From the NCBI GenBank assembly GCA_963765495.1, contig CAVXWP010000016.1:128001-192000 (forward strand): DNA of 64,000 nt. The letters are read 5' to 3'. Origin of the DNA: Blastocatellia bacterium. GTDB lineage: Bacteria > Acidobacteriota > Blastocatellia > UBA7656. This document shows, piece after piece, positions 8,597 to 61,376 of this stretch. The translations under genes and the position numbers were made by a program. The notes beneath the pieces were generated by a model. The model saw only the letters and a list, made by a program, of their open reading frames with translations, did not search any database and was not told the DNA's origin. Each line of letters opens with the position of its first letter. Position 1 is the first letter of the stretch.

Positions 8597-8622
8597 ATAT
8601 CTATAGACGGAGGTTTGGATTA

Positions 8623-8904: not shown

Positions 8905-8936
8905 CAATCGGCAGGTTAGAGATCGAGGAAGGAACT

Positions 8937-38551: not shown

Positions 38552-38594
38552 TTTCGACAAGGCGTTGTGTAGTCATTCGCGTTGGGAGATAGAG

Positions 38595-41500: not shown

Positions 41501-42944
41501 CGGAGAGGGTGGCTTCCGCATCTATGACGTTGCAAATATCGACCAGAAGGGATTCTCTGAAAGAATGACCACGGCTCCGTTCTCGCCGATGGGACAGAAA
41601 TTCTATATAAAGTCGAAGTACGCGACCGCCATCGCATCGCCGTCAACACTTGCGGTTGACCCGACGGCGACCGTGGGCGAAGTCCTGAAAGAGAAGACGC
41701 GCCGCATCTACCGGCCCGAAAACGACGAAGGAAAGTATCGCGACGACGGGCAGTTGATACCCGCGCTTTACGGCTTCCTCTACGGCACGGACAGGTACGA
41801 GGGGCTTGTGGTCATAGGCAACCCGCTCACCGAAAAGAAAAAAGGACCGGGCGTGGCCACATTGCTCGACGGCGACCCGAACAACAACTTTATCAAGCGC
41901 GCTCTGGCCTTCAATCCTGACGGCCTGCTCAACGGGGCCAACAACATCGTCATCGCGGGTTTCCACGCCTACATAACCTGCGATAAGGGGCTGGTTATCA
42001 TAGACCTTCACGACCCGCTCAAGCCAAAAGTTGTGGGGCAGATCGGAGAGCCGTTTATAAAGAAACCGCGAGCCGTGCAGATACAATTTCGCTACGGTTT
42101 CGTCTGCGACGAGGAAGGCGTAAAGGTCATTGACGTGACCGATCCCGATCACGTTCGTCCGGTCGAAGGCGCGGTCGTGCGGCTCGAAGATGCCCGAAAC
42201 ATCTACCCCGTCAGGACCTATGCTTACGTAGCAGGCGGCAAACAGGGGCTTGTCATTCTCGACATCGAAAACCCGGAAAAGCCGAAACTCGATCAGGTCT
42301 ATAACGCCGACGGGCAGATCAACGATACAAACGATGTGAAGGTGGGCATGACAAACGTGAGCCTGTTTGCTTATCTGGCCGATGGTCACAACGGGTTGCA
42401 GGTAGTTCAACTGATCTCGCCCGAAGATACGCCCGGCCATTACGGGTTCAGCCCCCGCCCGACCCCGCATCTGATCGCGCATCATCACACGCACGAACCG
42501 GCCCTCGCCATAAGCGAAGGGATAGACCGCGACCGCGCCGTGGATGAAAGCGGCAATCAGCTTTCCGTGTTTGGCCGCAGAGGCGCTCGTCCGATGAACC
42601 TCGAAGAACAGCATCGAATGTATATGAAAGACGGGAAGCTCTTTTCCTTCCCCGAAATCAAAGACAGCAACATCAAAAACAACAAAGACATCCGAGACTA
42701 CTTCGGGCCGCCGCCGCTAAACGAGTCGGCCGGTGGCAGCGGGTCGAAACCTGAGGCCCCGAAGGGTACTCAAAAAGAAGAGAAAAAATCGGAAGCCGCT
42801 TCCGGTCACAGTCCGGGACAGGCGCGCCTGGTCGAGCCTGACCAGATCAGGCCAAACGATTCAGCGGAATTGTTCGGGCTTGCGGGTCTGTTTTTGCCGC
42901 TGGCAATAACTCTGTTCCAACAGCGTAGGCGCAACAAAAAGTGA
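38595..42944 (+). CDS. Large decaheme c-type cytochrome with LVIVD-repeat beta-propeller and C-terminal membrane anchor
   Basis: 9 CxxCH plus 1 CX4CH (CGVAECH). LVIVD-like repeats ([46 protein letters not shown]). Ends [24 protein letters not shown]. Confidence 0.85.
38727..38792 (+). repeat. In-frame 15-bp tandem repeat (KATEA)n in the N-terminal linker
   Basis: acgaaggcaaccgat acgaaagcgactgag gcgaaggcaactgag gcgaaggcaactgag gcgaag. Confidence 0.8.
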
Positions 42945-43035
42945 CTCGTGATTCGTGATTGACCAAACTTGCAAGATGCCTTTGACATGCAGGCTTCTTA
43001 AAAGTCACGAATCACGAATCACTCTTCACGCATCA
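42941..43035. repeat. Family A element (copy 3); includes the TGA stop of the decaheme gene
   Basis: gTGActcgtgattcgtgatt-gaccaaacttgcaagatgcctttgacatgcaggcttcttaaaa-gtcacgaatcacgaatcactcttcacgcatca. Confidence 0.85.
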
Positions 43036-43050
43036 GATCGAGGGATTGAT

Positions 43051-43608
43051 ATGAGATTGAAGCTGGCTGTTCTTACGATATACGCGCTAGGCGTGATTAC
43101 GCCCGCGGCTTTGATGGCCGGACCCGCTGCCTCCGAGGATCAGGGCAACAGGGACAGCTATCAGAGTAAGAACCCCATTATCATGCTCAACACCAAGGGC
43201 GTGCGCACGCGCGGCCCTGTGCGCTTTGACCACGACGAACACGATTCGCTCATCAATCCCGACCCGAATAATCCTCACCCGGCTAAAGAGGGCGCGGCCT
43301 GCATAGGATGTCATCACACGGAGGACGCGCGCGGCATCGTGCAGTTGTGGAAATGCACTTCGTGCCACAAGACCGAAGGCGGGGGCGACGGGAAATTCAT
43401 AAACACAAAGAACAAGGACTGCGATCAATCGGGCAATCCCAAGAATCGCGAATGCGACGAGGTCTATTTCGAGCGGGCCTTTCACGACAAATGCATAAGC
43501 TGTCATATAGCGTCGAATAAAGAGTTCACCCTGAAGCAACCCGCGCCCGTGACGTGCGGCGGCTGCCACGAGTCTTTAGGAGCGAGCGCGGCCATGAATT
43601 CTAAATAG
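43051..43608 (+). CDS. Periplasmic tetraheme cytochrome c3 (class III)
   Basis: Signal peptide; FDHDEH, CIGCHH, CTSCH, AFHDKCISCH, CGGCH. Paralog of the N-terminal domain of 36197-38551. Confidence 0.88.
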   Translation: MRLKLAVLTIYALGVITPAALMAGPAASEDQGNRDSYQSKNPIIMLNTKGVRTRGPVRFDHDEHDSLINPDPNNPHPAKEGAACIGCHHTEDARGIVQLWKCTSCHKTEGGGDGKFINTKNKDCDQSGNPKNRECDEVYFERAFHDKCISCHIASNKEFTLKQPAPVTCGGCHESLGASAAMNSK

Positions 43609-43709
43609 CACGAATTCTAAATAGGAAGTTGGACCGGATTTGAGGTGTAATTAGGGGCTGTCCGAATTTTGCTATGACAGGTGGCAGTCATCTGGAGGAT
43701 TACCAGACC

Positions 43710-44693
43710 ATGCTGGGAACGAAAAGGATAGTACTCGCTTTAGGCTGTCTGTTGTTGATGGGGGCGTATTTCGGATTTACGCCGTCCGAGGCTAGTGAAA
43801 CCGACGCGCTCGTTTCCCAGCCCGTTCAGGGCGCGAGGCGAAACGCCAGCTTTCCACACGAAAAACAGAAGCACTCCGAGCTCGATTGCTCGAAATGTCA
43901 CCGGGTCACAAATCAGCCGCCCTTCGATGTCAAATCTCCCACGAGCGGTTCGGTTTATCCGGGGCACGCAAGCTGCGCGGGGTGTCACAACTTTGCCCAG
44001 ATGTTTTTCACGCAGCCGCAGTTTTGCGCCATCTGTCACAACGGAAGAGCCGTATCCCGTTCACAGCCCGCGCTCTTTGACCGCATCCCCAAGGCCGACC
44101 GCCCGAGCGATTTCGGATTGGATTTTTCACACGTCAATCACAAAAAGTCGCTTCCGCAAAACATACAGATAGAGCGATTTGATGTTAAGCCGATCTCTCA
44201 TTTCGGAGACATGTTCCAGCCGGGCGACGCTCCTAAATGCACCGGCTGTCACGAACAGACCCGCCCCCTGCGCGACAACCCGGATGATATGCGGACGGCC
44301 ACGGGGCACACGGCCTGCTTTGTCTGCCACGGCGCAATTCCTTCGAGCGGACGGTTGAAAAGCGTAAAGGAATTTCCTTACATGAACGATTGCCGCGAGT
44401 GTCACGACCTGCGCGGAGGGCGCTCGCCGCATCTGTTTGCAAATTACCATATAATGGATTTCAGGCACGAGGACCACGATTACGACATACGCCCGAGAAC
44501 CAAACAGCAGATCCGCGAGATAAAAGCCGAGGATCGTTTGTGTTCCGAGTGCCACAAGTCTGCGGCTACGGCTGAAAGCCTCAATGCCATAAAGCTGCCG
44601 GAAGAAAATTACTGCAACCAGTGCCATAACGGTAAGATCGGGCTGCCCGATCCTCTGGCTCAGGATGTTATGGATACGCTTAGAAGGCGTTAA
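43710..44693 (+). CDS. Periplasmic octaheme c-type cytochrome (repeated triheme c7-like modules)
   Basis: Signal peptide; 8 CxxCH arranged 3+3+2, each module preceded by FxHxxH. Confidence 0.85.
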   Translation: MLGTKRIVLALGCLLLMGAYFGFTPSEASETDALVSQPVQGARRNASFPHEKQKHSELDCSKCHRVTNQPPFDVKSPTSGSVYPGHASCAGCHNFAQMFFTQPQFCAICHNGRAVSRSQPALFDRIPKADRPSDFGLDFSHVNHKKSLPQNIQIERFDVKPISHFGDMFQPGDAPKCTGCHEQTRPLRDNPDDMRTATGHTACFVCHGAIPSSGRLKSVKEFPYMNDCRECHDLRGGRSPHLFANYHIMDFRHEDHDYDIRPRTKQQIREIKAEDRLCSECHKSAATAESLNAIKLPEENYCNQCHNGKIGLPDPLAQDVMDTLRRR

Positions 44694-44713
44694 ACCGATA
44701 GGGCGGTAATGAC

Positions 44714-45724
44714 ATGAGAAACGATACAGCGACAAGGCTCAAGCAAATAGTTCTGGCGATAACCGTGACACTTCTCATAGCGGGGGTCGCCTGCCGCAGC
44801 ACACAGCAGAATTTGAATAAACCGCCCGAAAACACAAATGGAAACTCAAACACCGCAGCGCCCGTCGACACAGGCATAATCACGGCCGAATCGCCCGTGG
44901 TCCGCACCTCGACTTTTGACCATTTCAGGGCCGAGCACCGGGTGGGGGCTGATGCGAAGATAAAAGACTGCGCCGTCTGCCATAAGAGAGACACCGCCGC
45001 GCCCTCAGACCCGCAGGTAAAACAGCCGAACCGGGATGGCTGGACGCCTTATCACGATTCTTGCGAGGTCTGTCATAACAAAGAGAATTTCCGCGAAACA
45101 TCGGCAACCGTACTGAAAGAAAAACCCCTCTGCGCGGGGTGCCACAAGGCGGAGGGCAACCAGATCGCCATATCTTCGGGCGGCGGGTTGAAAGGCGTCG
45201 TGATCGATTACCCGAAAGTGGAGACCGAATTCGGCATCAAAGGCGGCGCGAAAGGCTTCTCTCATAAGACTCACATGGACCTGCAAAAGATGGCCAACGA
45301 AGGCCAGGAAGTCAAATGCGAGACCTGTCACCAGTTCGGCAACAGAGGCATTCAGGCCTCCTTCCCGGAGCACCCGAACTGCTTTGGCTGTCACAGCCAT
45401 CAGGCCGGGCAGAAATTCGGCTCCTGCGACGTTTGTCACGTAAAGGCGCAGATGGCCGTAAGCTTCAGCCCCGGGACGGGGACGGCAGCCCGGCTGTATA
45501 ATTTCAGACACAGCAACTCTCATTTGAAGGCGGCAAACTGCGACCGATGTCATAAGACGAGGGAGATAGAAGCTCAGGCTGAAACCGATACGAAACCTCC
45601 TACCGATATAATGCAAATCAGCACGGCGCGAGGACAACGACACACTTCAGCCTGCTGGAGTTGTCACAGCCAGGCGCGTGAAACCGTTTGTACGAAATGC
45701 CATGTCGGGTCCCTGCCATTCTAA
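44714..45724 (+). CDS. Nonaheme c-type cytochrome, probable lipoprotein
   Basis: Hydrophobic leader ending GVAC plus Asn/Thr-rich tether; 9 CxxCH arranged 3+3+3. Confidence 0.85.
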   Translation: MRNDTATRLKQIVLAITVTLLIAGVACRSTQQNLNKPPENTNGNSNTAAPVDTGIITAESPVVRTSTFDHFRAEHRVGADAKIKDCAVCHKRDTAAPSDPQVKQPNRDGWTPYHDSCEVCHNKENFRETSATVLKEKPLCAGCHKAEGNQIAISSGGGLKGVVIDYPKVETEFGIKGGAKGFSHKTHMDLQKMANEGQEVKCETCHQFGNRGIQASFPEHPNCFGCHSHQAGQKFGSCDVCHVKAQMAVSFSPGTGTAARLYNFRHSNSHLKAANCDRCHKTREIEAQAETDTKPPTDIMQISTARGQRHTSACWSCHSQARETVCTKCHVGSLPF

Positions 45725-45885: not shown

Positions 45886-48324
45886 ATGGCGCAAGAACGC
45901 AAAAGCCGGCGCGAGGTACTCGACGCAATCAAAACCATCCCTTCGATAGCCGAGCTTTTATCGGCTCACGAAGGCCATTACGAACACGAGCTTGACCTTG
46001 AAGTCACCGTTTACGGGCGCAATTATGGCGGTAAGAAGGTCGGCCCCTATGTCCGCCTGCTCAGCTACGACCCGGGAGAGGCTGTGATTAAGGAAGGCGA
46101 CTGGGGCGGGAATACATTTTACATTGTAGCCGGCGGCCACGTGGATGTTTTTATAAATGCCCCCGGTCAGGGCGAAGTCAAAGTGGCGGAATTGCCCTCC
46201 GGCACTCAATTCGGAGAGATGAGCGTGCTTGCCGGTGTGCCTCGTAACGCCACGGTTAGGGCGCCTGCCGCGGGCCCCGCACAGGTGCTTGAAGTTCAGC
46301 GCCCGGCCCTGCGCCTGCTTCGCAAACTCCCAAAGTTCAGCGAGAGCCTCGATAAGACATATCGCTCGCACGGCAGAAATGCAACGATCGAAGATCTGAA
46401 GCTTCTCTTCGACATACCCGGAGAGCTTGCCGAGGACATCAAAAACATGTCGCTCTTCAGGGTCTTCTCAAAAAACCACGTCCTCTTCCGCGAAAACGCC
46501 GCCATCGACCGCATCTACGTGATAAAAGAGGGATGGATTCGCCGCAGCAAAGAGACGGGCGAAGTCGAAACGGAAGACTTCCTCGGCAAGGGCTATTGTC
46601 TGGGCGTAGAGGGGTTGTCGCAAAGCGCATCCTGGCCATACACCGTCACATTGCTCGGACGAACCGAGGTGCTTGAAATTTCGCTTCTCAGGCTTCGCCA
46701 GAACCCGGAACTCTTAAATGCCATTGCTAAAGGGATAGGCAGATTCGCGCCGCCGCCTTTTATGGCAAAGGTGAGCGAATTTAAGCCCGAAGTCCGCGAT
46801 AAGATTTTGGCCGCGCAGGAGAGCCTTATAGACACGGGCCTCGTCGATGGAAACAACCTGCTCGTCATGGACATGGACCTCTGCGTCAGATGCGGCAACT
46901 GCTCGCTTGCCTGTCACAAGATTCACGGCCAGTCGCGGCTGCTCAGAAGAGGCGTCCACGTGACCCGGCTCGACCGGCCGCGCCCGAGCGCCGTTCAAAG
47001 CATACTCTCTCCATCTGTCTGCATGCACTGCAAAGACCCCGAATGCCTGACCGGATGCCCTACGGGGTCGATAGGCAGGTTCGGCGCGGGGCAGGTAGAC
47101 ATCGACGCGAAGACCTGCATAGGCTGCGGCGATTGCGCCACCCAGTGCCCTTACAACGCCATCTCGCTGATTCCACGCAAACCGCCCGAAGCGGTAAAGA
47201 GCAACGGCGGATTTGCGGGTAAACTGCGCGATCTTTTAAGGCTTTCGCCCGACCCGCTCCCGCCCCCCGTAGAGACTACGGACAATCTGGTAGCCGTCAA
47301 ATGCAATCTCTGCAATAACACTCCGATAAATCCTCCGGGCAGCAAACGTCAGGCTTATAGCTGTGAAGAGAACTGCCCGACAGGGGCGCTTGCCCGCGTC
47401 AACCCGAGAGAGTATTTCAGCGAAATAGGCAATATCGAAGGGCTGATGTTGATGGATCAGACCCACGCTTACGGGCGCAATATTCATCAGTCCGATCCGC
47501 CAAAACGACTCACTCACATCGCAGGCATTCTGCTGACCGTGCTTCTGACTGCCGGAACCATATTGGGTATAGAACGCTACGGGCTTGGCGAACGTCTCTT
47601 CAGTTTCCTCAACATGCGCTGGATCACGGGGCTTGTCGGCCTCTTAGGCATCGCGGTCGTGATGACCTATCCCGTGCGCCGTCAGATGTACCGTCGCCGC
47701 GCGGGAGCCTTGCGTTACTGGATGCTCATACATTCTTATGTGGGAGTCATCGCGGGGCTTATGATACTGCTGCACGGCGGCACAAGTTCGGGCGGGTTGC
47801 TCACGACGGCGCTCATGATAAGCTGGGACCTCGTGATATTCACGGGTCTTTTTGGCATCTTCGCTTATCTGATCGGGCCTCGGATACTGACAAAGATCGA
47901 AGGCTCACCGCTTCTGATCGACGATCTGAAGACACGGCGCGAAGAGTTGCAAAAAGAGATAGCAACGATAGCAAGCTCGCCAAACGGGCAGCTTCACAAT
48001 CTGGTCAGAAACAAAGTCGTGCCGCACTTTGTCAACTTCGGATATCTGCTCAGACAGTATCTGAAGCGCGAGAACATTGATGAGATGCTTGAATCAGCCA
48101 AAGCCGAATTCAGTTCCGACGCCGCGACGCTTGCCGACGAAAAAGACCGGCGCAAGCTGCTGCGCGCAGTCGAAGCGGCGGCAACCCTGCGCAGAGTCGA
48201 CGCGCTCATCTACATCCATCGCGGTCTGAAGCTCTGGCTCATTCCACACGTAGCCTCAACTTCGCTAATGCTCGCGCTCATGACAGTTCACATAATACAG
48301 GTCATCTATTACGCATCGCGCTAG
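45886..48324 (+). CDS. Two cNMP-binding domains + DmsB/NrfC-like 4x[4Fe-4S] domain + di-heme-b (ferric-reductase-like) membrane domain
   Basis: FGEMSVLAGVPRNATVRA; CVRCGNCSLAC, CMHCKDPECLTGCP, CIGCGDCATQCP, CNLC...CEENCP; TM helices with two His pairs 14 residues apart (WMLIH...LLH, IPH...TVH). Confidence 0.82.
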   Translation: MAQERKSRREVLDAIKTIPSIAELLSAHEGHYEHELDLEVTVYGRNYGGKKVGPYVRLLSYDPGEAVIKEGDWGGNTFYIVAGGHVDVFINAPGQGEVKVAELPSGTQFGEMSVLAGVPRNATVRAPAAGPAQVLEVQRPALRLLRKLPKFSESLDKTYRSHGRNATIEDLKLLFDIPGELAEDIKNMSLFRVFSKNHVLFRENAAIDRIYVIKEGWIRRSKETGEVETEDFLGKGYCLGVEGLSQSASWPYTVTLLGRTEVLEISLLRLRQNPELLNAIAKGIGRFAPPPFMAKVSEFKPEVRDKILAAQESLIDTGLVDGNNLLVMDMDLCVRCGNCSLACHKIHGQSRLLRRGVHVTRLDRPRPSAVQSILSPSVCMHCKDPECLTGCPTGSIGRFGAGQVDIDAKTCIGCGDCATQCPYNAISLIPRKPPEAVKSNGGFAGKLRDLLRLSPDPLPPPVETTDNLVAVKCNLCNNTPINPPGSKRQAYSCEENCPTGALARVNPREYFSEIGNIEGLMLMDQTHAYGRNIHQSDPPKRLTHIAGILLTVLLTAGTILGIERYGLGERLFSFLNMRWITGLVGLLGIAVVMTYPVRRQMYRRRAGALRYWMLIHSYVGVIAGLMILLHGGTSSGGLLTTALMISWDLVIFTGLFGIFAYLIGPRILTKIEGSPLLIDDLKTRREELQKEIATIASSPNGQLHNLVRNKVVPHFVNFGYLLRQYLKRENIDEMLESAKAEFSSDAATLADEKDRRKLLRAVEAAATLRRVDALIYIHRGLKLWLIPHVASTSLMLALMTVHIIQVIYYASR

Positions 48325-48374: not shown

Positions 48375-51300
48375 ATGGCCAAGAACATATTCATCATCAA
48401 AAGGACGGATAAGGATAGCGGCGTTGACGATGTCGTTATCGAAAGCGAAGGCTTAACCATAGGACGGCTCGTCGGTAACGACCTCGTCCTAAACCACAGG
48501 GCCGTGTCCAGAACCCACGCCGGGATAAAAGAGATCAACGGCGAATTCTGGATATTCAATCTCTCAACCTCTAACGGGACGGTGCTAAACGGCCAACTGG
48601 CTGACAAGACGCCGCTCGCCGACGGGGACGTGCTTCAGATAGGCCCTTATATGCTCGTGATTGAATACGGCAAGAACGCGCTCTCGATAATCGTTCAAAG
48701 AGAGATCGAGGTCAATCCGCTCGAGGCATATGGAGCGGCGCAGTCGGCAGGCGCGGACGAAACCGGAAAGACCATGATGATCCAGATACCGGGTCTTGCG
48801 GGCAAAATTCCGGGCGGCACAAAAAGCATCAGAGGCACAGGGCTTCTCGGCAATGTGCTTCCCTCGATGGATCAGGCGGCGCTCGATGTCTTCTGGGAGA
48901 AGAGAAAAAGAGAGGCAGGCAAGATCGCCGAAGTCACGCCGCTTCATCCGAAGGGGGGCGAACGACTCGGGAGAGCCAGAAACAACTGGCGTCCTACGGT
49001 TGATCTGCGGAGGCTGTGGCGCAAGTCTTACTTCTATCTTGGCGCGGCCGTCGTCGTGTTGCTTTCGATTATCGCGATAATCATCTATGAGAGCGCATAT
49101 TCGCCCGGCTCGCTGGCCGACCCGCACGTGCGCGCGATGGATCAGAGCGCGCTCTTTACGCGAAATATCGCCAGCCGCGAAAACGCCAATTCGTGCTCCA
49201 CGTGCCACGGCGTCACAACAGGTATGCTCGACAACTGCATAACCTGTCATACGACTACGACCACGGGCGCGAGCGGCGCGACGAAGGCCGGGTTTTTGCC
49301 CCGCACCCTGATCGCAGGGCACAATAATCAGAACCTCGTATGCACCGACTGCCACATCGAGCATCAGGGGAGAGATGTTACAGCGGGTCTTGTGAGCTAC
49401 CGCCTCTGCTACAACTGTCACAACGGCGTTTACACGATCAAGAACGCGGGCAAGATCGGGCCTGCCGGTTCTGTGCTCCCCATTCCGCACGGCGGCAAGA
49501 CCGGATACACGGAACTGAGCACCGAGACAAAAGGCGGAAAATACTGGCCGGGGCTTTCCGCCGCGAGATGGGAAAAATCTATCGCCCGGTGGAGGGCGAA
49601 AGACCCCAACATCATCGCCGACGCGAAGAGTCTGGAAAACAGCCCCTCAAATCAGCAGTTTCACAAACTGCACCTCGGCGGCATAGGAATAGAAGGCAAG
49701 CAGAACAACCAGATATGCGCCATATGCCACTTCGATCAAAGCGGCAAAAATCTCGACACACAGACCAATTACGGTTTGCACGAAGCGCCGCGCCTGTCCT
49801 GCGCCAAGTGCCATACGGTCTCATACACGGTCGCGGGGGCAGCAAGTCAGGTCCCGGCAAGTTGCGAGACCTGTCATCAACAGCACGGCGCTGACGAAGG
49901 CATCCTCAACACGGCAAAGATCGTAGCCGACCCCGGCAAAGAACAGGAGTTTCTGGCTTCGCTCAACAAACCCGCGGCGGGACTCGAAAGTGGATTCCTG
50001 CCCTCGGCCGGGGCCATTGGAAGCGCCGATGTGATAAGGCAGAACAGAGATGTGGTCAGCCTTTCAAGCGCCGCTTCCAGTTTCGGCGCGCTTCCCTGGT
50101 ACGGGTGGGTGGCGGTCATCGGCATCATCCCCATCGCGGGTCTCGTCTTTATGTTCACCGACACGGCCCGCCGCAAATCTTATTTGAAGACGACTAAAAT
50201 AGAGGTCAAACCCGAGGATGAGGCGGCACTTGCGCTGACGGGTCTGCTCGACCTCGACAAACTGAAAGAGCAGGGACCGGCCTATCCTCACCCGGTCATA
50301 AACCAAATGACGTGCATAGGCTGTCACGCCTGCGTTGATGCCTGCCCTCACGATGTACTGGCAATCGTCAACGGAAAGTCTACGCCCATCGCGCTCGATC
50401 AGTGTATGGAAGACACCGCCTGTCAGGTCGAGTGCCCTACAAGTCCAAAATCCTGCATAGTAGTAAACACCAAGAAAGTGATTCCGCCGCGCAAGGTCCC
50501 GGCTCGTGACGGGCGGTTGGAGACCAACGTGCCGGGCATATATATGACGGGAGACGTTTCGGGTACGCCGCTTATCAAGAACGCCATAAACGAAGGGCGG
50601 AGGGTGATCGATTCCGTCAAGGAAGACCTTGAAAAGAACGGGCGCGCTCCGGGGGCGGATTATGATGTGGCAATCGTAGGATGCGGTCCGGCGGGATTGT
50701 CTGCGACGGTCCTTGCCAAAATAGAGGGGCTGAGTTATATCGCGGTGGAACAGGATCGTCTGGCCGGAATGATTCAGGAAGTCTATCAGGCAGGCAAGTT
50801 TGTCTTTTACACACCCGCCGATAAAGAAGTGGTCGGCGGCGTCCCGCTCCTCCCAGACCCCGACAAGCCCGAAGGAAATCTGAAAGAGAACATGCTCAAG
50901 GGCTGGTTCGACGCGATGATGCAAAACGGCGTGGTTGTAAATGAAGAGGAAGGATGCCGGGCGGTCAAGAGCGAAAACGGGTACTTCGTTCTTTCGACCG
51001 AAAAGGGCAAGTCGAAACAGAAGGTGGAGTACAAGGCTCGCAAGGTGATTCTCTCCATCGGCAATCGCGGAGCACCGATGAAACTCGGCGTTCCGGGCGA
51101 AGACCTAAAGATAACCGTCACGCCTCCGCCACAGATCGCCAATCACTGCCCGAAATGCGGGATGGCCCGCAAAGGCACCCAGCTTTTCTGCGTTCAGTGC
51201 GGGCAGCAACTCCCTTCAAAGACCCTGCCGCCTTTCGAGGACGACAGAGTGCAATACAAGCTCTCTGACCCGAAAGACTATGTCAACCGCAAGTGCATAG

Positions 51301-51674
51301 TCGTGGGCGCGGGCAATTCGGCCATAGAGGTAGCCGTAGGTCTTACAGGGTTTGAGCGCGACGGAGACAAGATCAATTTCACAAGCGACAACGAAGTCAC
51401 TTTGATCGTCCGCTCGGATTTCAAAGGAGACCTCGCTTTAGGAAACAAGATGAACGTCTATGATTGCATAGACTCGGGCCGCATGAAGGCATATTTCGGA
51501 TGCGGGATCAAAGAGGTGCTGCCCGGCGAGGTAGTCATAATGAACGCTCGCACAAAAGAAGAGAAGGCCCGCATCCCGAACGACTATATCTTCGCCCTGA
51601 TCGGTGCCGAAAAACCCATAAAATTCCTCGAAAGCATGGGCGTAAAGATCGGCGCGGAGGCAAAAAAGGGATGA
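48375..51674 (+). CDS. FHA + TM + heptaheme cytochrome c + TM + 2x[4Fe-4S] ferredoxin + thioredoxin-reductase-like FAD/NAD(P)H oxidoreductase fusion
   Basis: IGR..SRTH..SNGT FHA; 7 CxxCH between two TM helices; CIGCHACVDACP and CMEDTACQVECP; ETNVPGIYMTGD, VGCGPAGLSA, VVGAGNSAIEVA; inserted CPKC..CVQC ribbon. Confidence 0.85.
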   Translation: MAKNIFIIKRTDKDSGVDDVVIESEGLTIGRLVGNDLVLNHRAVSRTHAGIKEINGEFWIFNLSTSNGTVLNGQLADKTPLADGDVLQIGPYMLVIEYGKNALSIIVQREIEVNPLEAYGAAQSAGADETGKTMMIQIPGLAGKIPGGTKSIRGTGLLGNVLPSMDQAALDVFWEKRKREAGKIAEVTPLHPKGGERLGRARNNWRPTVDLRRLWRKSYFYLGAAVVVLLSIIAIIIYESAYSPGSLADPHVRAMDQSALFTRNIASRENANSCSTCHGVTTGMLDNCITCHTTTTTGASGATKAGFLPRTLIAGHNNQNLVCTDCHIEHQGRDVTAGLVSYRLCYNCHNGVYTIKNAGKIGPAGSVLPIPHGGKTGYTELSTETKGGKYWPGLSAARWEKSIARWRAKDPNIIADAKSLENSPSNQQFHKLHLGGIGIEGKQNNQICAICHFDQSGKNLDTQTNYGLHEAPRLSCAKCHTVSYTVAGAASQVPASCETCHQQHGADEGILNTAKIVADPGKEQEFLASLNKPAAGLESGFLPSAGAIGSADVIRQNRDVVSLSSAASSFGALPWYGWVAVIGIIPIAGLVFMFTDTARRKSYLKTTKIEVKPEDEAALALTGLLDLDKLKEQGPAYPHPVINQMTCIGCHACVDACPHDVLAIVNGKSTPIALDQCMEDTACQVECPTSPKSCIVVNTKKVIPPRKVPARDGRLETNVPGIYMTGDVSGTPLIKNAINEGRRVIDSVKEDLEKNGRAPGADYDVAIVGCGPAGLSATVLAKIEGLSYIAVEQDRLAGMIQEVYQAGKFVFYTPADKEVVGGVPLLPDPDKPEGNLKENMLKGWFDAMMQNGVVVNEEEGCRAVKSENGYFVLSTEKGKSKQKVEYKARKVILSIGNRGAPMKLGVPGEDLKITVTPPPQIANHCPKCGMARKGTQLFCVQCGQQLPSKTLPPFEDDRVQYKLSDPKDYVNRKCIVVGAGNSAIEVAVGLTGFERDGDKINFTSDNEVTLIVRSDFKGDLALGNKMNVYDCIDSGRMKAYFGCGIKEVLPGEVVIMNARTKEEKARIPNDYIFALIGAEKPIKFLESMGVKIGAEAKKG

Positions 51675-51871: not shown

Positions 51872-52642
51872 TTGAAAGTCAGACTTCTGCCGAGCAGCGC
51901 GGGGCGACATTCCCAGGAGCAGTCGCTAACCAGTTTCCTCATAAACGATCTGGTTTCGATTGACGGCGGCAGCATTGGATTTGCCCTGACGCCACCTGAA
52001 ATGGGCAAGGTCCGAGACATCGTGATAACGCATACGCACAGCGATCATCACGCATCTTTGCCTATTTTCATAGCCGAAGCATTCACAATGCTCGACGGAC
52101 CCGTTACGATTTACGGCCTGCCGGAAGTGATCTCGGCGTTGAGGGAGTTTATATTCAACGACAAAATATGGCCGAACTTCGAAAAGATTCCGCTTATGAA
52201 CGGCAAATCTTCTACGATAGAGTTTCGCGTCTTAGAGCCGAGAGAGACGATCGAGATTGCGGGGCTGCGCGTGACGCCAATACCCGTAAATCACCTTGTT
52301 CCGACTATCGGATTGCTGGTCGAGGACGACGGGGCCGCCGTGATCTTCACCTCCGATACTTACGTGACGGACGAGATATGGCAGCGCGGCAGAGAGAGCG
52401 AAGAGCTAAAAGCCGTCTTTGTTGATATTTCATTTCCGAACGAGCTTGGCAAACTTGCTGCCGACTCCAAGCACCTGACCCCTGAGTTGCTTGCCGGAGA
52501 GCTGAAAAAACTGAACCGGGATGCCGAAGTCTTTGCGGTCCATATCAAGCCTACCAACAGGGATCAGGTAATTCACCAGCTTGGCCTGCTCGACAATCCG
52601 CTTGTTTCAGTGGCCGAAATCGGGCGGGTTTATGAGTGGTAA
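51872..52642 (+). CDS. Class II 3',5'-cyclic-nucleotide phosphodiesterase (metallo-beta-lactamase fold)
   Basis: LTSFLIND.VSIDGG, ITHTHSDHHA, FIFNDKIWPNF, PVNHLVPT, FTSDT, SFPN..A..SKHLTP, HIKP; GGGAGG RBS before TTG. Confidence 0.85.
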   Translation: MKVRLLPSSAGRHSQEQSLTSFLINDLVSIDGGSIGFALTPPEMGKVRDIVITHTHSDHHASLPIFIAEAFTMLDGPVTIYGLPEVISALREFIFNDKIWPNFEKIPLMNGKSSTIEFRVLEPRETIEIAGLRVTPIPVNHLVPTIGLLVEDDGAAVIFTSDTYVTDEIWQRGRESEELKAVFVDISFPNELGKLAADSKHLTPELLAGELKKLNRDAEVFAVHIKPTNRDQVIHQLGLLDNPLVSVAEIGRVYEW

Positions 52643-52693
52643 CTGACGGGTGGTAATTGCCCCAGACCGGTCGCCGCAGAATTTGAAGATGTT

Positions 52694-54319
52694 ATGTCTC
52701 TAAAACTATTAATAAGAAACACCGAAACAGGACAGGTAACCGAGAACGTATTGTCTGCCCCCGAAGTGCGGATAGGCCGGTCAGCCGAATATAACGACAT
52801 AGTGCTTGACGACTCTCAGGTCTCGCGCCGACACGCGATGCTACAGCGACTGGGCAGTTCATACATGCTTGTGGACCTAAACAGCGCCAACGGCACCTTC
52901 GTTGACGGTGAGCGGATCAAAGACCGCATCCTCAACGACGGCAATTCGTTTTCAATCAGCAAGTACACGCTCACATACAAGAGCGAAGGAGCGGTTGCCG
53001 TCAAATTCGACAACCAGCGAATCGGCAACACCGTACTGCTGCGCAACCCGGAACAGGTCGCGGCAAGTATAGCGCAACTGGATAAGTCTGTTATCTCTGA
53101 AGCCGCGGTTGATTCCAAGGACTTGCTCGAAGACATAGAAGCGCTCAGGAAAAAAGCGGAAACGCTGTCGCGCCTCTACGAATTGAATCAGATGCTCGGG
53201 TCGGTCTTTTCGCTCGAAGACATATTCAAGAAAGTAAGCGAGATGTTGTTCCGTCTGACGCCGGCCGACCGTTTTCTGGTTCTGTTGAAAGACACGGGCA
53301 CGGGCAAGCTCTCTCCGGTAGCCACGGAATTCCGCATACAGGCGGGCCGGTTGATAGCCGGTGACATATCGGTCTCTCAGACTGTGATGGACCGCGTCTT
53401 AAACGAGCGAATGTCGCTGCTCTCCTTCGATGCGCAGGGCGATGAGAGGTTGAAATCGTCTCAGTCCATCATCATGCAGAATATCCATTCGGTTATGTGC
53501 GCTCCTTTGCTTGGCAAAAACGGCGTGCTGGGTGTCGTCTATGTCGATTGCCTGCAAATCATTCAGACCTTTAAGGAAGACGACCTTGAATTATTGAATG
53601 CGCTCGCGGCTGAGACCGCCATAGCCGTCGACAACGCCATAACACACGAGCAACTGGTCAGAGAAGCCCTGGCTCGCGCTACCTATGGCCGCTTCATGCC
53701 CAAGCACGTGGTTGATGCAATACTGGCCAACCCCGATCAGATAAGCATGGGAGGGTCAAACGCCCTCGTTACCATGCTCTTTTCCGACGTTCGCGGATTC
53801 ACAAGCATGTCTGAGAATCTGCCGCCTGAGACCGTAGTCCAGATGCTTAATGAGTATTTTGGCGATATGGCTCCAATTGTATTCGAGTATCAGGGTTTGC
53901 TCGACAAGTATATCGGAGACGGTTTGATGGCGCTCTTCGGCGTGCCTTATCAAAACGAAAAATCTGCCACAAACGCCGTGGCCGCCGCCGTAACCATGCA
54001 ACGCCAGATGGAAAAGGTAAACAAAGAACTAACGAATAGAGGGCTTGCTGAAATCGCCATCGGGATAGGCATAAACACTGGAACGGTGACGGTCGGCTAT
54101 ATAGGTTCGGAAGAGCGGACCGATTATACCGCGATTGGCGACGCGGTCAATCTGGCTGCGCGATTGGAAAAAGAAGCGGGCCGAGGTCAGATAATAATCA
54201 GTTATTCCACGCTCGAAGCAATCGGAGACGGCTTTCCCGTAAAGCCAAAAGGCGAAGTGCTTGTAAAGGGGAAGCGAGAAGCGGTTAAGATTTATGAGGT
54301 TCTCTGGCAGGAGGCCTGA
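52694..54319 (+). CDS. FHA-GAF-class III adenylate cyclase
   Basis: IGRS..SRRH..ANGT; GAF (SVMCAPL..GVVYVD..F.EDDL); FSDVRGFT, DKYIGDG, DYTAIGDAVNLAARLE with Lys/Thr adenine-specifying residues. Confidence 0.92.
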   Translation: MSLKLLIRNTETGQVTENVLSAPEVRIGRSAEYNDIVLDDSQVSRRHAMLQRLGSSYMLVDLNSANGTFVDGERIKDRILNDGNSFSISKYTLTYKSEGAVAVKFDNQRIGNTVLLRNPEQVAASIAQLDKSVISEAAVDSKDLLEDIEALRKKAETLSRLYELNQMLGSVFSLEDIFKKVSEMLFRLTPADRFLVLLKDTGTGKLSPVATEFRIQAGRLIAGDISVSQTVMDRVLNERMSLLSFDAQGDERLKSSQSIIMQNIHSVMCAPLLGKNGVLGVVYVDCLQIIQTFKEDDLELLNALAAETAIAVDNAITHEQLVREALARATYGRFMPKHVVDAILANPDQISMGGSNALVTMLFSDVRGFTSMSENLPPETVVQMLNEYFGDMAPIVFEYQGLLDKYIGDGLMALFGVPYQNEKSATNAVAAAVTMQRQMEKVNKELTNRGLAEIAIGIGINTGTVTVGYIGSEERTDYTAIGDAVNLAARLEKEAGRGQIIISYSTLEAIGDGFPVKPKGEVLVKGKREAVKIYEVLWQEA

Positions 54320-54413
54320 TGAGTTTTGAGTTTTGAATTTTGAGTTTTGAGTTTTGAGTTTTGAGTTTTCCTGATTCACAGAATTCAAAACTCAAAATTC
54401 AAAACTCAAAACT
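54320..54413. repeat. Inverted (TGAGTTT)n array filling the gap between convergent stops
   Basis: tgagttttgagttttgaattttgagttttgagttttgagttttgagtttt-cctgattcacagaa-ttcaaaactcaaaattcaaaactcaaaact. Confidence 0.9.
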
Positions 54414-54416
54414 ATT

Positions 54417-56045
54417 TCAAGCGCCGGCCGCGTTTCCCAGACCGAAGAATTTTATTATCCGGGCGAAGATGTCCTTCTGCGCGTGGCCCATGCGACTGGC
54501 CGTGGCTTCGGCATCAAGCCCGTCGCGGGCCGCTTCGTATTCCGTTCGGCGTCGCGCAAGCACATGAGATATATACTCGGCTATCTCGGGGCGCTTGAGC
54601 AGGATGTCGTGAAAGGCTTCTTTGTCCAGCCGGTAACATTCCACGTCTTCGAGCGCCATAACCGTAGCCGACCTCTTTTCCCCGGTCATCAAAGACATCT
54701 CTCCAAAAAAATCTCCGGGGTGCAAAACGGCAAGGCTGCGAGTCTGTCCGCTCTCAATCGAAAGAGTGACCTCCGCCACTCCTTCCGTGATGATGTAGAG
54801 CCAGTGTCCTTCGGCTCCCTGTCTGGTAATCGCCTCGCCCTTTGTGAACGGAGCGGGGACGAGTCGCTCGGCAAGCACCCGGCGCTCTTCATCGCTCAGA
54901 GTATGGAACAGGTCTACACCTGCAAGCGCGGCAAGACGACCCTCGATCTCGCGTTCCTGTTTTCTGCCCCTTCGCTTCTCGGTCTCTTCTGTGACAAAGA
55001 CGCTCTGCGCGGGGATAGAGAGCGGAATCCCGGCGCGTTTGAGCGCGAAATATATCCGCGTGCGAACTATGGAGTCGGTCGGGTCATCCACGGCCAGGTC
55101 GGTCAGCCAGTACCGCGCGGCATAGTAACAGAAACTCTCTTTGAAATCATAAAGTATGCAATGAATCTTAGGCTCGGCGGCGACCCGCTCTATCGGTTCG
55201 GCCTGGAGCGCCTCGTTTACTATCGAGATGACCTGGGTCGGCGGGACGCGAAAGTCCACGTTGAAATAGACCCACTGGCGATGCTGCGTAGCCTGCCCGG
55301 TCCTGCGGCCCAGCACCGTGACCTGCCCTTTCATCAACATGCTGTTTGGGAAAATGATCGTGTCCCAGTTGCGCGTCTCAATCGAAGTGTGCCGCCAGCG
55401 TATCTCTTTTACCTTCCCGACATTTTGATCAATCTTCACCCAGTCGCCGACGTTTATAGTCTTTTCCAGTTGCAGTGCCAGCCCGCCCATGATGTTGCCA
55501 AGCGTATCCTGAAGCGAAAAGGCGATCACAGCCGTCAGCACCGCCGATGTCGTGATTATGTCTGAAAGACTCAATCCCCCGTGCCAGAGCAACCCCATTC
55601 CAACCATGATATAGCCTAAGGCTACAAGCAGGTCGCGGAGTATTCGAGGCGTGTGAACATGGATCAGATTGAGCAGGATATCGAATATGAATATGCTCGC
55701 AAGATTTACGATTGCAATCCCGCCTATCAACAGCCCCGTGTTGAGAGTAAAGTTGCTGGACGATTTTGCTCCACTCGATTCGAACAGGCTCGATGCCGAA
55801 ATCAGCACAAGCGCCAGCAGGAAAAACCAGCTTGCCGCCCGAATGCGAGAGCGCGCGGCAGGCACATATTTCACAAGCAAGATCGCGACTACGGCAAACG
55901 TCGCGGTCACAGGCAATACGTTGTGTTTGGAATAGACGGCGCGCAAATCGTTCCAGAGGCTCGATAGATTCAGCCCTGCGGAGTCTTGCAGAACGGCAAT
56001 CGTAAGAAGGTAAAACGGTTTCTGAAGAGAGACGAAAAAATCCAT
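54417..56045 (-). CDS. MscS-family channel with C-terminal cNMP-binding domain
   Basis: TSAVLTAVIAFSLQDTLGNIMGGL, VGDWV, IRWRHT, FPNS; FFGEMSLMTGEKRSATV. Confidence 0.9.
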   Translation of the reverse strand: MDFFVSLQKPFYLLTIAVLQDSAGLNLSSLWNDLRAVYSKHNVLPVTATFAVVAILLVKYVPAARSRIRAASWFFLLALVLISASSLFESSGAKSSSNFTLNTGLLIGGIAIVNLASIFIFDILLNLIHVHTPRILRDLLVALGYIMVGMGLLWHGGLSLSDIITTSAVLTAVIAFSLQDTLGNIMGGLALQLEKTINVGDWVKIDQNVGKVKEIRWRHTSIETRNWDTIIFPNSMLMKGQVTVLGRRTGQATQHRQWVYFNVDFRVPPTQVISIVNEALQAEPIERVAAEPKIHCILYDFKESFCYYAARYWLTDLAVDDPTDSIVRTRIYFALKRAGIPLSIPAQSVFVTEETEKRRGRKQEREIEGRLAALAGVDLFHTLSDEERRVLAERLVPAPFTKGEAITRQGAEGHWLYIITEGVAEVTLSIESGQTRSLAVLHPGDFFGEMSLMTGEKRSATVMALEDVECYRLDKEAFHDILLKRPEIAEYISHVLARRRTEYEAARDGLDAEATASRMGHAQKDIFARIIKFFGLGNAAGA

Positions 56046-56075
56046 CCGGGTCAGCCCCTTTGCCTGATCGTTTAA

Positions 56076-57509
56076 TTAACCGAGTTTGAAGAATCGCTGA
56101 ATGCGGCGCAACACGGTCTCTCTTTGCATGCGTTTTTCGCTTTCAGGGACACTGTGCGCATATTCGGCGAGACGCGCCTGCCGGTCGGCGATCTTGTGAG
56201 AGAAAGCCTCGACCAGTTTGTCATTCTCGTTGAACAACTGCTCGATGGCCTGCTTTCTTATTTCGAAGATCTCGACTTCTTCCAGGGCGTTGACATCCGC
56301 CGTCCTGGGTTCGCCCGTGAAAAGCGCCATCTCTCCAAAGAAATCGCCCGCTGCAAGCACGGCCACGCGCTGAGATTGACCATTCGAACCCGAGACTTTA
56401 ACCTCGGCCTTGCCTCGATAAATTATAAACATCGAATCGCCTTCATCGCCGCGATGCAGAATCTCTTCGCCGGGAGCATAAATGTATCTGGCCAGCGAAT
56501 GGGTCAGCACAGTCCTCTCTTCATCCGTGAGCGGCTCGAAAATTTCTACCGACCGGATCACCTTATCATAGTCGGTCTCGTCGCGCTTCACCTCTACCTT
56601 CTGCCTCTCAAACAGGACGTGCCGCACGGGGAAGGGGATATGCAGATCGTTGCGGCTGAAGAGATACCATATTCGCTCTCTGATTTGCGCATCCATATTC
56701 GGGGTCCACATATAATCCTTGACCCAGTAGAGGACTTCATAGGTTACGCTCGATTCCGAAAACTCGTGGATACGCACAACGGGGATTTTTTCAGGCGAAA
56801 CCCTCGGCATAGTGCGGACGGTTTCGCGCACAAGCGGGATCACCTTTTGCGGGGGGGTCGCATAAGGAGCCGGGAACCGCAGCACGCGCCGGTTGAGGCC
56901 GTGCAGCGGGTATATTTCAAGCGGCTCGCGCGCGATCTTGCTGTTTGGGAATATGATGACGCTGTTGTTGTTTGTGCGAATGGCGGTCGTGCGCCATGTT
57001 ACCGATTCCACCTTGCCGAGCATATCGCCCATTCGAATCGCGTCACCGATGTAATAAGGCTGCTCGACGTGCAACGACAACCCGGCAAAGAAATTTCCCA
57101 GCGTGTCCTGTAATGCGAGACCGATGATAACCGTGACGACAGCCGATGTTGCGAGCACTCCGCTCAGGTCTTTCTTAAAGACAAAGCTATAGATGACAAC
57201 AAAAAGCGCCGAATATCCGATTATCGAAATCACAAGGCGAAGCAGTGCGGGCGCTTCGCGTCCCTTTCGCTTCTGAAAGATTATGTCAAACAGCACATAG
57301 CTTACGGCTCGGACTACTGTCACGCCGATGCTTATGACCAGCACCGTTTGAAAGTACACATAGCCCTGGATATCCATCAAGCCGTGGGCAAAGAGTCTGA
57401 GGATGATATAGATCAGGCCCAGCAGCAGGCTGACGGTAGCCGTCACTGTCAGCCTTTTCAGCGCCGAATTAGAGTCTTCCATTGCCTGATTGCTCGTCAT
57501 CTCATTCAC
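56076..57509 (-). CDS. MscS-family channel with C-terminal cNMP-binding domain (paralog)
   Basis: TSAVVTVIIGLALQDTLGNFFAGL, IGDAI, VTWRTT, FPNS; FFGEMALFTGEPRTADV. Confidence 0.9.
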   Translation of the reverse strand: MNEMTSNQAMEDSNSALKRLTVTATVSLLLGLIYIILRLFAHGLMDIQGYVYFQTVLVISIGVTVVRAVSYVLFDIIFQKRKGREAPALLRLVISIIGYSALFVVIYSFVFKKDLSGVLATSAVVTVIIGLALQDTLGNFFAGLSLHVEQPYYIGDAIRMGDMLGKVESVTWRTTAIRTNNNSVIIFPNSKIAREPLEIYPLHGLNRRVLRFPAPYATPPQKVIPLVRETVRTMPRVSPEKIPVVRIHEFSESSVTYEVLYWVKDYMWTPNMDAQIRERIWYLFSRNDLHIPFPVRHVLFERQKVEVKRDETDYDKVIRSVEIFEPLTDEERTVLTHSLARYIYAPGEEILHRGDEGDSMFIIYRGKAEVKVSGSNGQSQRVAVLAAGDFFGEMALFTGEPRTADVNALEEVEIFEIRKQAIEQLFNENDKLVEAFSHKIADRQARLAEYAHSVPESEKRMQRETVLRRIQRFFKLG

Positions 57510-58491: not shown

Positions 58492-58515
58492 TCAAACTCT
58501 CCTAACAACAGCCAA

Positions 58516-58641
58516 CAGCGCGCAGTTGGCTCGAAGTAGTAGTCTGAAAATCCACAACAAGAAAATAGCCACAACAAGAAAATAGCAGGGCTTTTCTTTT
58601 GACTTTGTCTACCACTACTTCTGACAGCCGACAACGCGCTG
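58516..58641. repeat. Imperfect inverted repeat enclosing a 17-bp direct duplication
   Basis: cagcgcg/gttggct/gaagtagt pair with actacttc/agccgac/cgcgctg; ccacaacaagaaaatag x2 at 58552-58585. Confidence 0.6.
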
Positions 58642-58663
58642 ACAGCCGAATATTGTTTCTCGC

Positions 58664-59809: not shown

Positions 59810-59823
59810 AACTCATCCCTTCG

Positions 59824-61362: not shown

Positions 61363-61376
61363 TCTCTCACTCCCTC

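Follow-up and report, generated by a model that had tools for sequence, protein, structure and literature searches.

A membrane-spanning heptaheme protein of Blastocatellia with a circularly permuted flavoprotein module and a predicted part in a gated NAD(P)H-to-cytochrome electron wire

In NOX enzymes two b hemes are held by two His pairs on two transmembrane (TM) helices, and NOX, FRE and MsrQ proteins share the logic of a cytoplasmic NAD(P)H-flavin donor, two b hemes and an acceptor outside. CbcL of Geobacter joins a b-type TM domain to a multiheme c domain in the periplasm. PMC8238504 describes MsrQ-like proteins that have NAD-binding domains, and according to PMC12307469 the known Gram-negative routes of extracellular electron transfer start at the quinone pool: the Geobacter inner-membrane proteins CbcL and ImcH are fed by menaquinol and pass electrons to periplasmic multiheme cytochromes. 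Here we describe a gene, F (48375-51674), and its upstream neighbor, E (45886-48324), in a 64,000-nucleotide stretch of the genome of a Blastocatellia bacterium (Acidobacteriota; GenBank assembly GCA_963765495.1, contig CAVXWP010000016.1, positions 128,001 to 192,000 of the forward strand; hereafter the window, in whose own numbering all positions are given). The predicted E-F pair follows the NOX/FRE/MsrQ logic, but E has no PF01794 domain, the flavoprotein is of the TrxR/YpdA type and not an FNR-type dehydrogenase domain, and six Fe-S clusters and seven c hemes would be added, with the parts spread over two proteins. The combination found in CbcL resembles the TM domain of E plus the heme domain of F, whereas CbcL and ImcH, according to PMC12307469, have no cytoplasmic NAD(P)H, flavin or Fe-S module; no sequence relationship of F to CbcL or ImcH was detected with Pfam or in a PDB sequence search of the heme domain. 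We consider it slightly better than even (probability about 0.55) that E and F form a complex acting as a signal-gated wire from NAD(P)H through the membrane to periplasmic multiheme cytochromes. F itself reads as a membrane redox module that occurs in Acidobacteriota of the class Blastocatellia, here in its fused form.

F is a single open reading frame (ORF) on the + strand that runs from ATG to stop at exactly 48375-51674 (1099 aa), with GAGGA 10 nt 5' of the ATG and a gap of 50 nt between E and F. Its product comprises a cytoplasmic FHA domain, a TM helix, seven periplasmic CxxCH hemes, a second TM helix, a two-cluster ferredoxin and a YpdA/TrxR-like flavoprotein, a module order that an earlier note on this DNA had proposed and that Pfam, NCBIfam, a motif script and conservation all bear out. 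Pfam placed FHA at aa 28-90 (E 2.4e-14), cytochrome c3/c7-type matches at 270-350 and 443-502, Fer4 at 640-690, Pyr_redox_3/Pyr_redox_2 at 763-1093 (E 3e-25) and a weak zinc ribbon at 924-945 (E 0.008). Residues of F are called invariant with reference to an alignment of 25 full-length homologues (A1), from which an AlphaFold2 model was also built (mean predicted local distance difference test [pLDDT] of 55.8). Outside the flavoprotein, the sole TM-like hydrophobic segments lie at approximately aa 219-241 and 575-598: TM helix 1 (49029-49097, in to out; Kyte-Doolittle maximum 2.68) has 5 Lys or Arg (K/R) in the preceding 15 residues, and TM helix 2 (50097-50168, out to in; maximum 2.16) has 6 in the following 15. 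By this charge bias the N-terminus and the C-terminal module lie inside and the hemes outside, so that the donor and acceptor would indeed sit on opposite membrane faces, as had been suggested; c-type heme attachment takes place outside the cytoplasmic membrane.

The order of motifs in the flavoprotein departs from that of its superfamily. A 2007 survey of the tDBDF superfamily (PMC1924876) gives, in its available part, a fixed order of FAD motif, NAD(P) motif and GD motif, and the string “permut” is absent from that part. All three superfamily motifs (FAD GxGxxG, NAD(P) GxGxxG/A and GD) are present in F, but the GD segment, at aa 706-758, lies ahead of the FAD motif at 769, and the chain stops where the GD segment would normally come. 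The module begins with this transposed FAD-binding segment (strand, G726-D727, long helix; 50490-50648, + strand), which aligns to C-terminal parts of GltD, TrxR-type FNR and YpdA. It continues with the N-terminal part of the FAD domain (G769xG771P772xG774, E792) up to the PGE block (aa 762-912, 50658-51110), a Cys4 ribbon insert (C925, C928, C939, C942; aa 913-958, 51111-51248) and the NAD(P)H domain (G978-A-G-N-S982, R1013-S1014) with its return strands and the stop codon (aa 959-1099, 51249-51674). When aa 700-1099 were searched with phmmer against PDB sequences, F 765-913 aligned to residues 6-148 of YpdA (7a76) and F 969-1096 to residues 159-273, the last block reaching to 3 residues before the C-terminus of F, while aa 706-761 aligned to C-terminal regions of the TrxR-type FNR 5ygq (270-294; E 1.3e-4), GltD 7mfm (439-495; E 1.5e-3) and FNR2 6gas (273-289). 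The NCBIfam GltD model TIGR01317 (485 positions) likewise matched F aa 707-750 on its positions 432-476 (E 4.2e-5); the match of the GD segment to residues 281-298 of YpdA itself was not significant alone. These block alignments indicate a clean rotation that brings the final ~50 residues of the canonical enzyme to the start of the chain, and the circular permutation claimed in the earlier note therefore stands. In the AlphaFold2 model, residues 711-760 are modelled confidently (pLDDT 67-91): strand 722-724 and helix 733-755 lead on to a strand at 763-768. Where the GD segment sits in three dimensions is a prediction. Foldseek of the F model (pLDDT 65-92 in this region) returned YpdA/Bdr (7a7b/7a76) as the best PDB match (E 5e-18, TM-score 0.55 on the target), followed by TrxR-type FNRs and TrxRs. 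G726-D727, G769/G771/P772/G774, E792, G978-A-G-N-S982 and R1013-S1014 are invariant.

To establish how widely these features are shared, relatives were collected at several levels. A word-indexed search with F returned 467 proteins at E up to 1e-3; the 120 matches listed were 47-68% identical to F, nearly all covering 99-100% of it, and those with names came from Acidobacteriota/Blastocatellia assemblies, annotated as “NAD(P)-binding domain-containing protein” or “thioredoxin reductase”. When 1.84 billion cluster representatives were searched exhaustively with aa 700-1099 (phmmer), 1788 matched at E up to 1e-3, 133 of them at E up to 1e-30. Hidden Markov models (HMMs) of five pieces of F were then located in the best 150 of these 1788 representatives (50%-identity clusters), which is the scope of all architecture counts below. 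The GD segment lies directly ahead of the FAD motif in 129 of the 150; the canonical order was recovered in three (P0324, P0375 and P0387), which serve as internal controls that the method detects both orders, and the remainder comprise one representative with a larger gap, six with the FAD part only and 11 fragments. A ferredoxin piece is present in 103 representatives and the ribbon in only 12. Judged by these counts, the permutation is a trait of a large unnamed family and not peculiar to F, and the ribbon is a clade-specific local addition. The permuted module occurs with a TM anchor and a ferredoxin (~440 aa), behind three to five FHA domains and a ferredoxin (1233-1384 aa), joined to a NapH-like membrane Fe-S domain (P0286), after a multiheme domain and TM helix without ferredoxin (P0329), and between a cyclic-nucleotide-binding (cNMP-binding) plus Fe-S portion and a TM tail (P0289). 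Atlas clusters with the same Pfam make-up come from Acidobacteriota, Gemmatimonadota, Pseudomonadota and Myxococcota.

The closest described relative of the module, both by sequence (phmmer E 1.7e-13) and by fold, is the bacillithiol disulfide reductase YpdA/Bdr (7a7b, 7a76; TIGR04018). The two share the two-dinucleotide-binding core, the FAD GxGxxG, the NAD(P) GxGxxA and an Arg past the second strand; F differs in placing the GD segment first, in ending after the NAD(P) domain, in carrying Ala773 at the motif Cys, and in being membrane-anchored with a ferredoxin domain ahead and a ribbon insert. The conserved Cys of the YpdA GGGPCG motif has a functional role, and in TrxR the redox-active CxxC sits in the NADPH domain, between the PGE block and GxGxxA. 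Between these two landmarks F has no CxxC besides two ribbon knuckles, and the distance is 58 residues in F versus 17 in TrxR 2q7v; the earlier statements that the TrxR CxxC is absent and that a four-Cys ribbon is inserted past the PGE block both agree with this alignment and with the motif scan. Source annotations as thioredoxin reductase, together with best family matches to YpdA and TrxR, would fit a thiol-disulfide reductase acting like TrxR/YpdA on a thiol substrate, independently of the hemes. This is barely credible given that the NAD(P) domain lacks CxxC, that the YpdA motif Cys is Ala773 in F and the sole Cys of the F FAD motif (C770) varies among homologues, that scores fall far below cutoffs (121.5 versus 339.9 bits for TIGR04018, E 3e-35; 43.3 versus 343.45 for TIGR01292, low-Mr thioredoxin reductase), and that the module is preceded by or linked to Fe-S domains in the same 103 of 150 representatives.

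A better match in function is offered by the TrxR-type FNRs (3lzw, 3ab1, 2zbw, 6gas, 5ygq), which belong to the same fold class as F and, like it, lack CxxC. In these enzymes a C-terminal extension covers the flavin; the F chain ends earlier, so that such an extension is impossible in F. Those without CxxC reportedly exchange single electrons with Fe-S proteins, and by analogy this is most likely what the F module does, although TrxR-type FNRs have the canonical order, are soluble and use a separate ferredoxin partner. F would accordingly fit the name in predicted function only. The FNR/YpdA-like identity put forward earlier is thus matched by the best sequence and fold hits (YpdA/Bdr and TrxR-type FNRs), oxidoreductase activity being predicted. 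Of 136 aligned representatives, 125 retain the Arg that corresponds to R1013, and the strand ends without an acidic residue. This conserved Arg after the second strand of the NAD(P) domain, together with the missing acidic residue, favors NADPH, and a preference of F for NADPH is plausible; YpdA, the closest solved relative of the flavoprotein, is described as NADPH-dependent in the title of preprint 10.1101/2020.12.02.408641. In the ribbon (pLDDT 75-82), C925, C928, G929, C939, C942 and G943 are invariant and form two CxxCG knuckles. Zinc-ribbon families (PF13240/PF12773) matched F weakly (E 0.008 and 0.026) and the relative P0245 more clearly (Zn_Ribbon_1, E 1.6e-6; DZR, E 3e-9), while ribbon-less relatives such as P0297 carry a short link at this site. 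As the insert occupies the position of the TrxR redox-active dithiol, a rubredoxin-like Fe(Cys)4 relay was also considered; nothing beyond position supports it, and the family matches are all to zinc-ribbon models.

The periplasmic domain of F (aa 242-574, 49098-50096, + strand) carries CxxCH motifs at aa 274, 288, 323, 345, 448, 476 and 497, which account for all 14 Cys of the domain; composition-preserving shuffles (n = 20,000) never produced more than two. All seven motifs are invariant, as are seven further His (H251, H316, H330, H372, H430, H433 and H504), which would be enough for bis-His ligation of seven hemes. Among complete homologous ORFs in the genome loci described below (n = 73), 72 have exactly seven CxxCH and one has eight. 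Pfam matches are weak (Cytochrome_C7/c3_2), and the domain matched nothing in the PDB by sequence below E 0.2. The ferredoxin domain (aa 638-700, 50286-50474, + strand; pLDDT below 50) is matched by Fer4 families. Its first motif is canonical (C647xxC650xxC653xxxC657P) and invariant; in the second, C677xxD680xxC683xxxC687P, an invariant Asp replaces the expected Cys, and there is an additional invariant C694. Ferredoxins with CxxDxxCxxxCP carry [3Fe-4S] or Asp-ligated [4Fe-4S] clusters. The two [4Fe-4S] clusters assigned earlier are therefore not established for F: the first motif agrees with the assignment, and the second is not a four-Cys motif. Two ~440-aa relatives read by eye show similar variants, with the second Cys replaced in both motifs of P0297 (CxxSxxCxxxCP and CxxHxxCxxxCP) and CxxHxxCxxxCP as the second motif of P0299, so that replacement of a cluster Cys seems to be habitual in the family and not a local oddity.

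Whether the five modules travel as one chain was assessed in species-representative genomes, a scan of which gave 601 pattern matches, 222 confirmed relatives and 80 loci that were kept, with locus classes assigned by tblastn with window proteins and by ORF tracing. The fusion is real in F, yet elsewhere it is the minority state, with a fused gene in 22 of the 80 loci. In 51 loci F is split into an FHA-TM-heptaheme gene and a hairpin-ferredoxin-flavoprotein gene, which are adjacent in 31 (~470-510 and ~516-565 aa, respectively) and 1-3 kb apart in 20; six further loci have the second gene only and one is cut by a contig end. With these separate genes, the Rosetta-stone check proposed earlier has a positive outcome. 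Unrelated genes intervene in the separated loci; at L021, for example, the products of the genes between the two halves (7376-9769) resemble, when read by eye, a rhomboid-like membrane protein with an N-terminal zinc ribbon and, as a second protein, a ClpX-like AAA ATPase. A search among shorter proteins gave 1421 hits, many of ~550-560 aa, 56-60% identical and covering F aa 630-1099, and five of the six read consist of a two-helix hairpin, a ferredoxin and a permuted flavoprotein with ribbon. The “G-(V/L)PW-GW” lead-in and the second hairpin helix of the split forms match F TM helix 2, which suggests that the fusion dropped the first hairpin helix and kept the topology. A quick maximum-likelihood tree was made from the ferredoxin-flavoprotein part of 73 rows, after a length/stop filter had removed eight loci; L007, whose N-terminus is truncated, was also put aside. 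In this tree all 22 fused rows, the window among them, fall on one side of one branch (SH-aLRT 85). The tree may reflect a single fusion or fission event, with which it is compatible without proving one. The row nearest to the window is L001, titled Chloracidobacterium sp. UBA7656, with 76% identity in this part. Several E-F loci lie on contigs titled “uncultured Clostridia”, “Heliomicrobium” or “Heliobacteriaceae” (L007, L009, L017, L022, L025, L027, L029, L037, L046, L047 and L049); this is probably a labelling problem, since those rows that entered the tree sit inside Acidobacteriota clades.

E, the proposed membrane partner, probably starts at the ATG at 45886 (812 aa; the longest ORF begins at the TTG at 45832). 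Its first 300 residues (45886-46785, + strand) hold two cNMP-binding domains (Pfam cNMP_binding, E 1.3e-26, two stretches), which are present in all 26 aligned E sequences; the top Foldseek hits of the E model are the tandem cNMP-binding domains of PKA/PKG regulatory subunits. They are followed by a four-cluster Fe-S domain (aa 320-520, 46843-47445) with 16 invariant Cys in four motifs, for which NCBIfam matches were to ArrB (1.5e-15), DsrO (4.7e-14), NrfC, DmsB and FDH-beta (to ~1e-12), all below cutoffs. Unlike the NrfC, DmsB, DsrO, ArrB and FDH beta subunits that it resembles, which go with membrane anchors, this domain of E is cytoplasmic, shares a chain with its TM domain and follows two cNMP-binding domains. 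The C-terminal part (aa 535-812 plus stop, 47488-48324; pLDDT mostly 62-93) is a five-helix TM domain and a candidate di-heme b protein. All 26 sequences keep two His pairs, H616/H630 on TM3 and H788/H802 on TM5; within each pair the His are 14 residues apart (H-x13-H), one near each membrane face, which is the pattern expected for two stacked, putative b hemes. The loop between TM2 and TM3 has a mean of 6.0 K/R (26 sequences) against 0.3-1.4 in the outer loops; these charges place the Fe-S domain, the TM2-3 loop and the long segment after TM4 inside and the K/R-poor loops outside. PF01794 (ferric reductase) gave no match at E up to 10 in 23 TM-domain sequences, nor in the whole protein, and no match to the TM region came from phmmer (lowest E 0.26). 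Alignment A3 contains fused rows, and when it was used as a profile against the PDB their flavoprotein and ferredoxin parts swamped the result.

Two lines of evidence tie E to the flavoprotein. E lies directly upstream of F or F-N (the FHA end of split forms), on the same strand, at 71 of 74 loci with the FHA end visible, and two of the three exceptions have less than 2.5 kb of upstream sequence. In addition, an HMM of the E TM domain matched eight of the 150 flavoprotein representatives at their C-terminal tails (P0380, P0320, P0389, P0374, P0328, P0373, P0289 and the truncated P0323; E 1e-13 to 3e-5), while a ninth match (P0346) was weak and N-terminal. These relatives join ferredoxin, permuted flavoprotein and E-type TM domain in a single chain, and in their alignment H616/H630 are present in all 13 aligned rows and H788/H802 in all 12; H544 and H778 are not conserved. 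The family of P0380 has 1288 hits, the best 120 of which cover at least 92% of the query; its few named members come from Myxococcota assemblies under a generic protein name. Such gene fusion ties the flavoprotein to an E-type membrane domain independently of gene order. P0387 and P0375, two of the representatives in canonical order, run from the flavoprotein into two cNMP-binding domains and a four-cluster Fe-S domain, matching the N-terminal two thirds of E; by its domain content, this is a second, independent link of this flavoprotein type to E-like domains. The earlier proposal that F needs the b hemes of the gene at 45886 thus gains from the gene linkage and from TM fusions that keep the His, the b-heme binding itself still being predicted.

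On this basis the following path can be proposed. NAD(P)H, probably NADPH, would reduce FAD in the permuted flavoprotein of F, and single electrons would pass from FAD to the two ferredoxin clusters of F and on to the four Fe-S clusters of E. The membrane would be crossed via two b hemes on the four invariant His of the E TM bundle, first the inner and then the outer, from which electrons would reach the seven bis-His c hemes of the F periplasmic domain and finally the signal-peptide-bearing multiheme cytochromes encoded at 36152-45724. The two cNMP-binding domains of E and the FHA domain of F would act as gates. The b hemes, the cluster types, the metal of the ribbon, the E-F contact, the direction of flow, the donor, the terminal acceptor and the gating are all predicted elements of this scheme. 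Since outward flow dissipates membrane potential, the wire is better read as a gated valve or reductant supply than as an energy-conserving respiratory step, and flow that is downhill and potential-dissipating would explain why both partners carry regulatory input domains.

Several observations weigh against a wire of this kind. No experiment on any family member was found in the literature, in which coverage of subscription journals was thin, and model confidence for the heme, ferredoxin and Fe-S domains (pLDDT below 50) is too low to give inter-cofactor distances. The TM fold of E was not identified: Foldseek on the full E model gave only cNMP-domain matches, a TM-only profile (A4) found nothing in the PDB (best E 2.1), PF01292 matched 13 of 23 TM-domain members at sub-threshold scores (best E 2.2e-4), and an Atlas lead of “ferric reductase like” for E (0.82) is below the trust level of the tool. 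PF01292-type cytochromes b usually react with quinones, and the quinone independence of E-F is a presumption. At locus L044 a fused F is preceded by 6.4 kb of other genes, none of which is E. The cytochrome and cAMP genes accompany E-F only in its closest relatives, matches among the 80 loci, as read from the hit table, numbering ~12 for a cytochrome gene (A-like), 14 for the phosphodiesterase-like gene (G-like) and 12 for the cyclase (H-like); the conserved core of the locus is E-F itself. Finally, outward electron flow costs membrane potential, and the physiological pay-off is unclear.

The main rival is a quinone-coupled complex in which the E TM domain would be a di-heme cytochrome b of the FdnI/HydC/CbcL type and menaquinol would reduce the heptaheme as with CbcL/ImcH in Geobacter, the flavoprotein/Fe-S chain being then either a type-II-like NAD(P)H:quinone input or a regulatory side branch. 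The PF01292 matches are the only family signal for the TM domain, the Fe-S domain of E resembles the four-cluster partners of quinone-reactive anchors (ArrB, DsrO, NrfC, DmsB, FDH beta), and, according to PMC12307469, the Geobacter inner-membrane cytochromes that feed periplasmic cytochromes oxidise menaquinol. Nonetheless, we hold this arrangement to be unlikely, because all family matches of E are sub-threshold and no quinone-site motif was identified in it, because the b-heme bundle is flanked by complete cytoplasmic donor and periplasmic acceptor modules, which exceeds the needs of a quinol oxidase, and because the single-chain relatives hold only ferredoxin, flavoprotein and TM bundle, as a through-membrane wire needs.

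The regulatory domains allow a further interpretation. The FHA domain of F (aa 1-110, 48375-48704, + strand; Pfam E 2.4e-14, model pLDDT ~57-85) scores 54 bits against a cutoff of 20.7, and G30, R31, S45, R46, H48, N67, G68 and T69 are invariant, including the phosphothreonine (pThr) contacts G30-R31, S45/H48 and N67-G68; a regex for the FHA signature matched 68 of 73 locus ORFs. Between it and TM helix 1 lies a conserved cytoplasmic juxtamembrane segment (FW-KRKRE-GK ... NW ... DL; aa 160-218, 48852-49028) that matches no family, with A169, F173, W174, R177, K178, R179, G182, K183, L190, P192, G199, N204, W205, D210 and L211 invariant. No protein kinase domain occurs among the 41 window ORFs of at least 120 aa, as had been noted before. 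Downstream of F, at 51872-57509, are genes for an MBL-fold protein matching class-II cAMP phosphodiesterases, an FHA-GAF-adenylate cyclase and two MscS proteins with C-terminal cNMP-binding domains. A redox sensor or transducer, in which a small flux would inform cAMP and phospho-Thr networks of the redox state in the periplasm or outside the cell, or signals would run the other way, would draw on this downstream set, on the paired cNMP-binding domains in every aligned E sequence, on the intact pThr contacts and on the recurrence of FHA and cNMP domains on the same flavoprotein module in unrelated architectures. It appears improbable, as at least 13 redox centres and five neighboring cytochromes with 34 CxxCH are heavy equipment for sensing, and the regulatory domains on these redox proteins are inputs, with no output domain fused to E or F.

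The proposed acceptors are encoded by five co-directional multiheme cytochrome genes upstream of E (36152-45724), 10-65 nt apart and with hydrophobic N-termini in their products, which carry 4, 9 (plus one Cx3CH), 4, 8 and 9 CxxCH, or 34 in total. The first (36152-38551; 799 aa) has its four CxxCH near the N-terminus, and the remaining ~600 aa are without family match. The largest (38565-42944; 1459 aa), with nine CxxCH, one Cx3CH and an LVIVD repeat, matches ExtM/ExtN/ExtO, cytochromes of the selenite/tellurite operon, below the cutoffs and may be an outer or terminal component of the chain. Farther upstream are a bacterial-like globin (32810-33325, + strand) and a 703-aa HbpS-like heme-degrading-domain protein (33495-35606, - strand). 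On the other side, the - strand at 57502-63997 encodes glucokinase, opcA, zwf, gnd and pgl, the NADPH-producing oxidative pentose-phosphate branch, and a glucokinase homologue also follows the cluster at L003, L004, L006, L007, L008, L011 and L018. The neighboring pentose-phosphate genes would supply NADPH, a suggestion drawn from adjacency only. The chain is in principle reversible, and TrxR-type FNRs reportedly run in both directions, so that electrons might also be taken up from the periplasm or from outside the cell and, via c and b hemes, reduce cytoplasmic NAD(P)+. Such inward flow is very improbable, since on bioenergetic grounds it would be opposed by the membrane potential and the low NAD(P)+ potential, and neither E nor F contains an ion-translocating energy-coupling module.

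Export of cytoplasmic reducing power across the membrane is known in kind; the set of parts in E-F is new. A literature search whose journal coverage was partial brought up no paper about the F family, a permuted flavoprotein of the YpdA/TrxR type or a multiheme wire fed by NADPH, so that absence from the literature is unproven. More tentatively, at somewhat under even odds, E-F and the single-chain ferredoxin-flavoprotein-TM proteins may together represent a prokaryotic class of transmembrane NAD(P)H oxidoreductases convergent with NOX, built from a permuted YpdA-type flavoprotein, Fe-S clusters and an undescribed di-heme b bundle, which in Blastocatellia would serve a quinone-bypassing extracellular electron transfer via the heptaheme and periplasmic cytochromes, switched by cAMP and Ser/Thr phosphorylation. 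For flavoprotein evolution, the 129 of the best 150 of 1788 representatives point to a large unnamed branch with a rotated motif order. If the proposed wire is real, reducing power would be exported in a different manner, by way of an NAD(P)H entry that the wire itself provides in the cytoplasm, and a testable question follows: is NADPH discharged to periplasmic cytochromes without quinones, under the control of cAMP and phosphorylation? Ecologically, Blastocatellia and Pyrinomonadaceae genomes from many assemblies share the E-F pair, with 222 relatives confirmed in a single scan, and the design is common in one class of soil bacteria, whose genomes give it generic annotations only.

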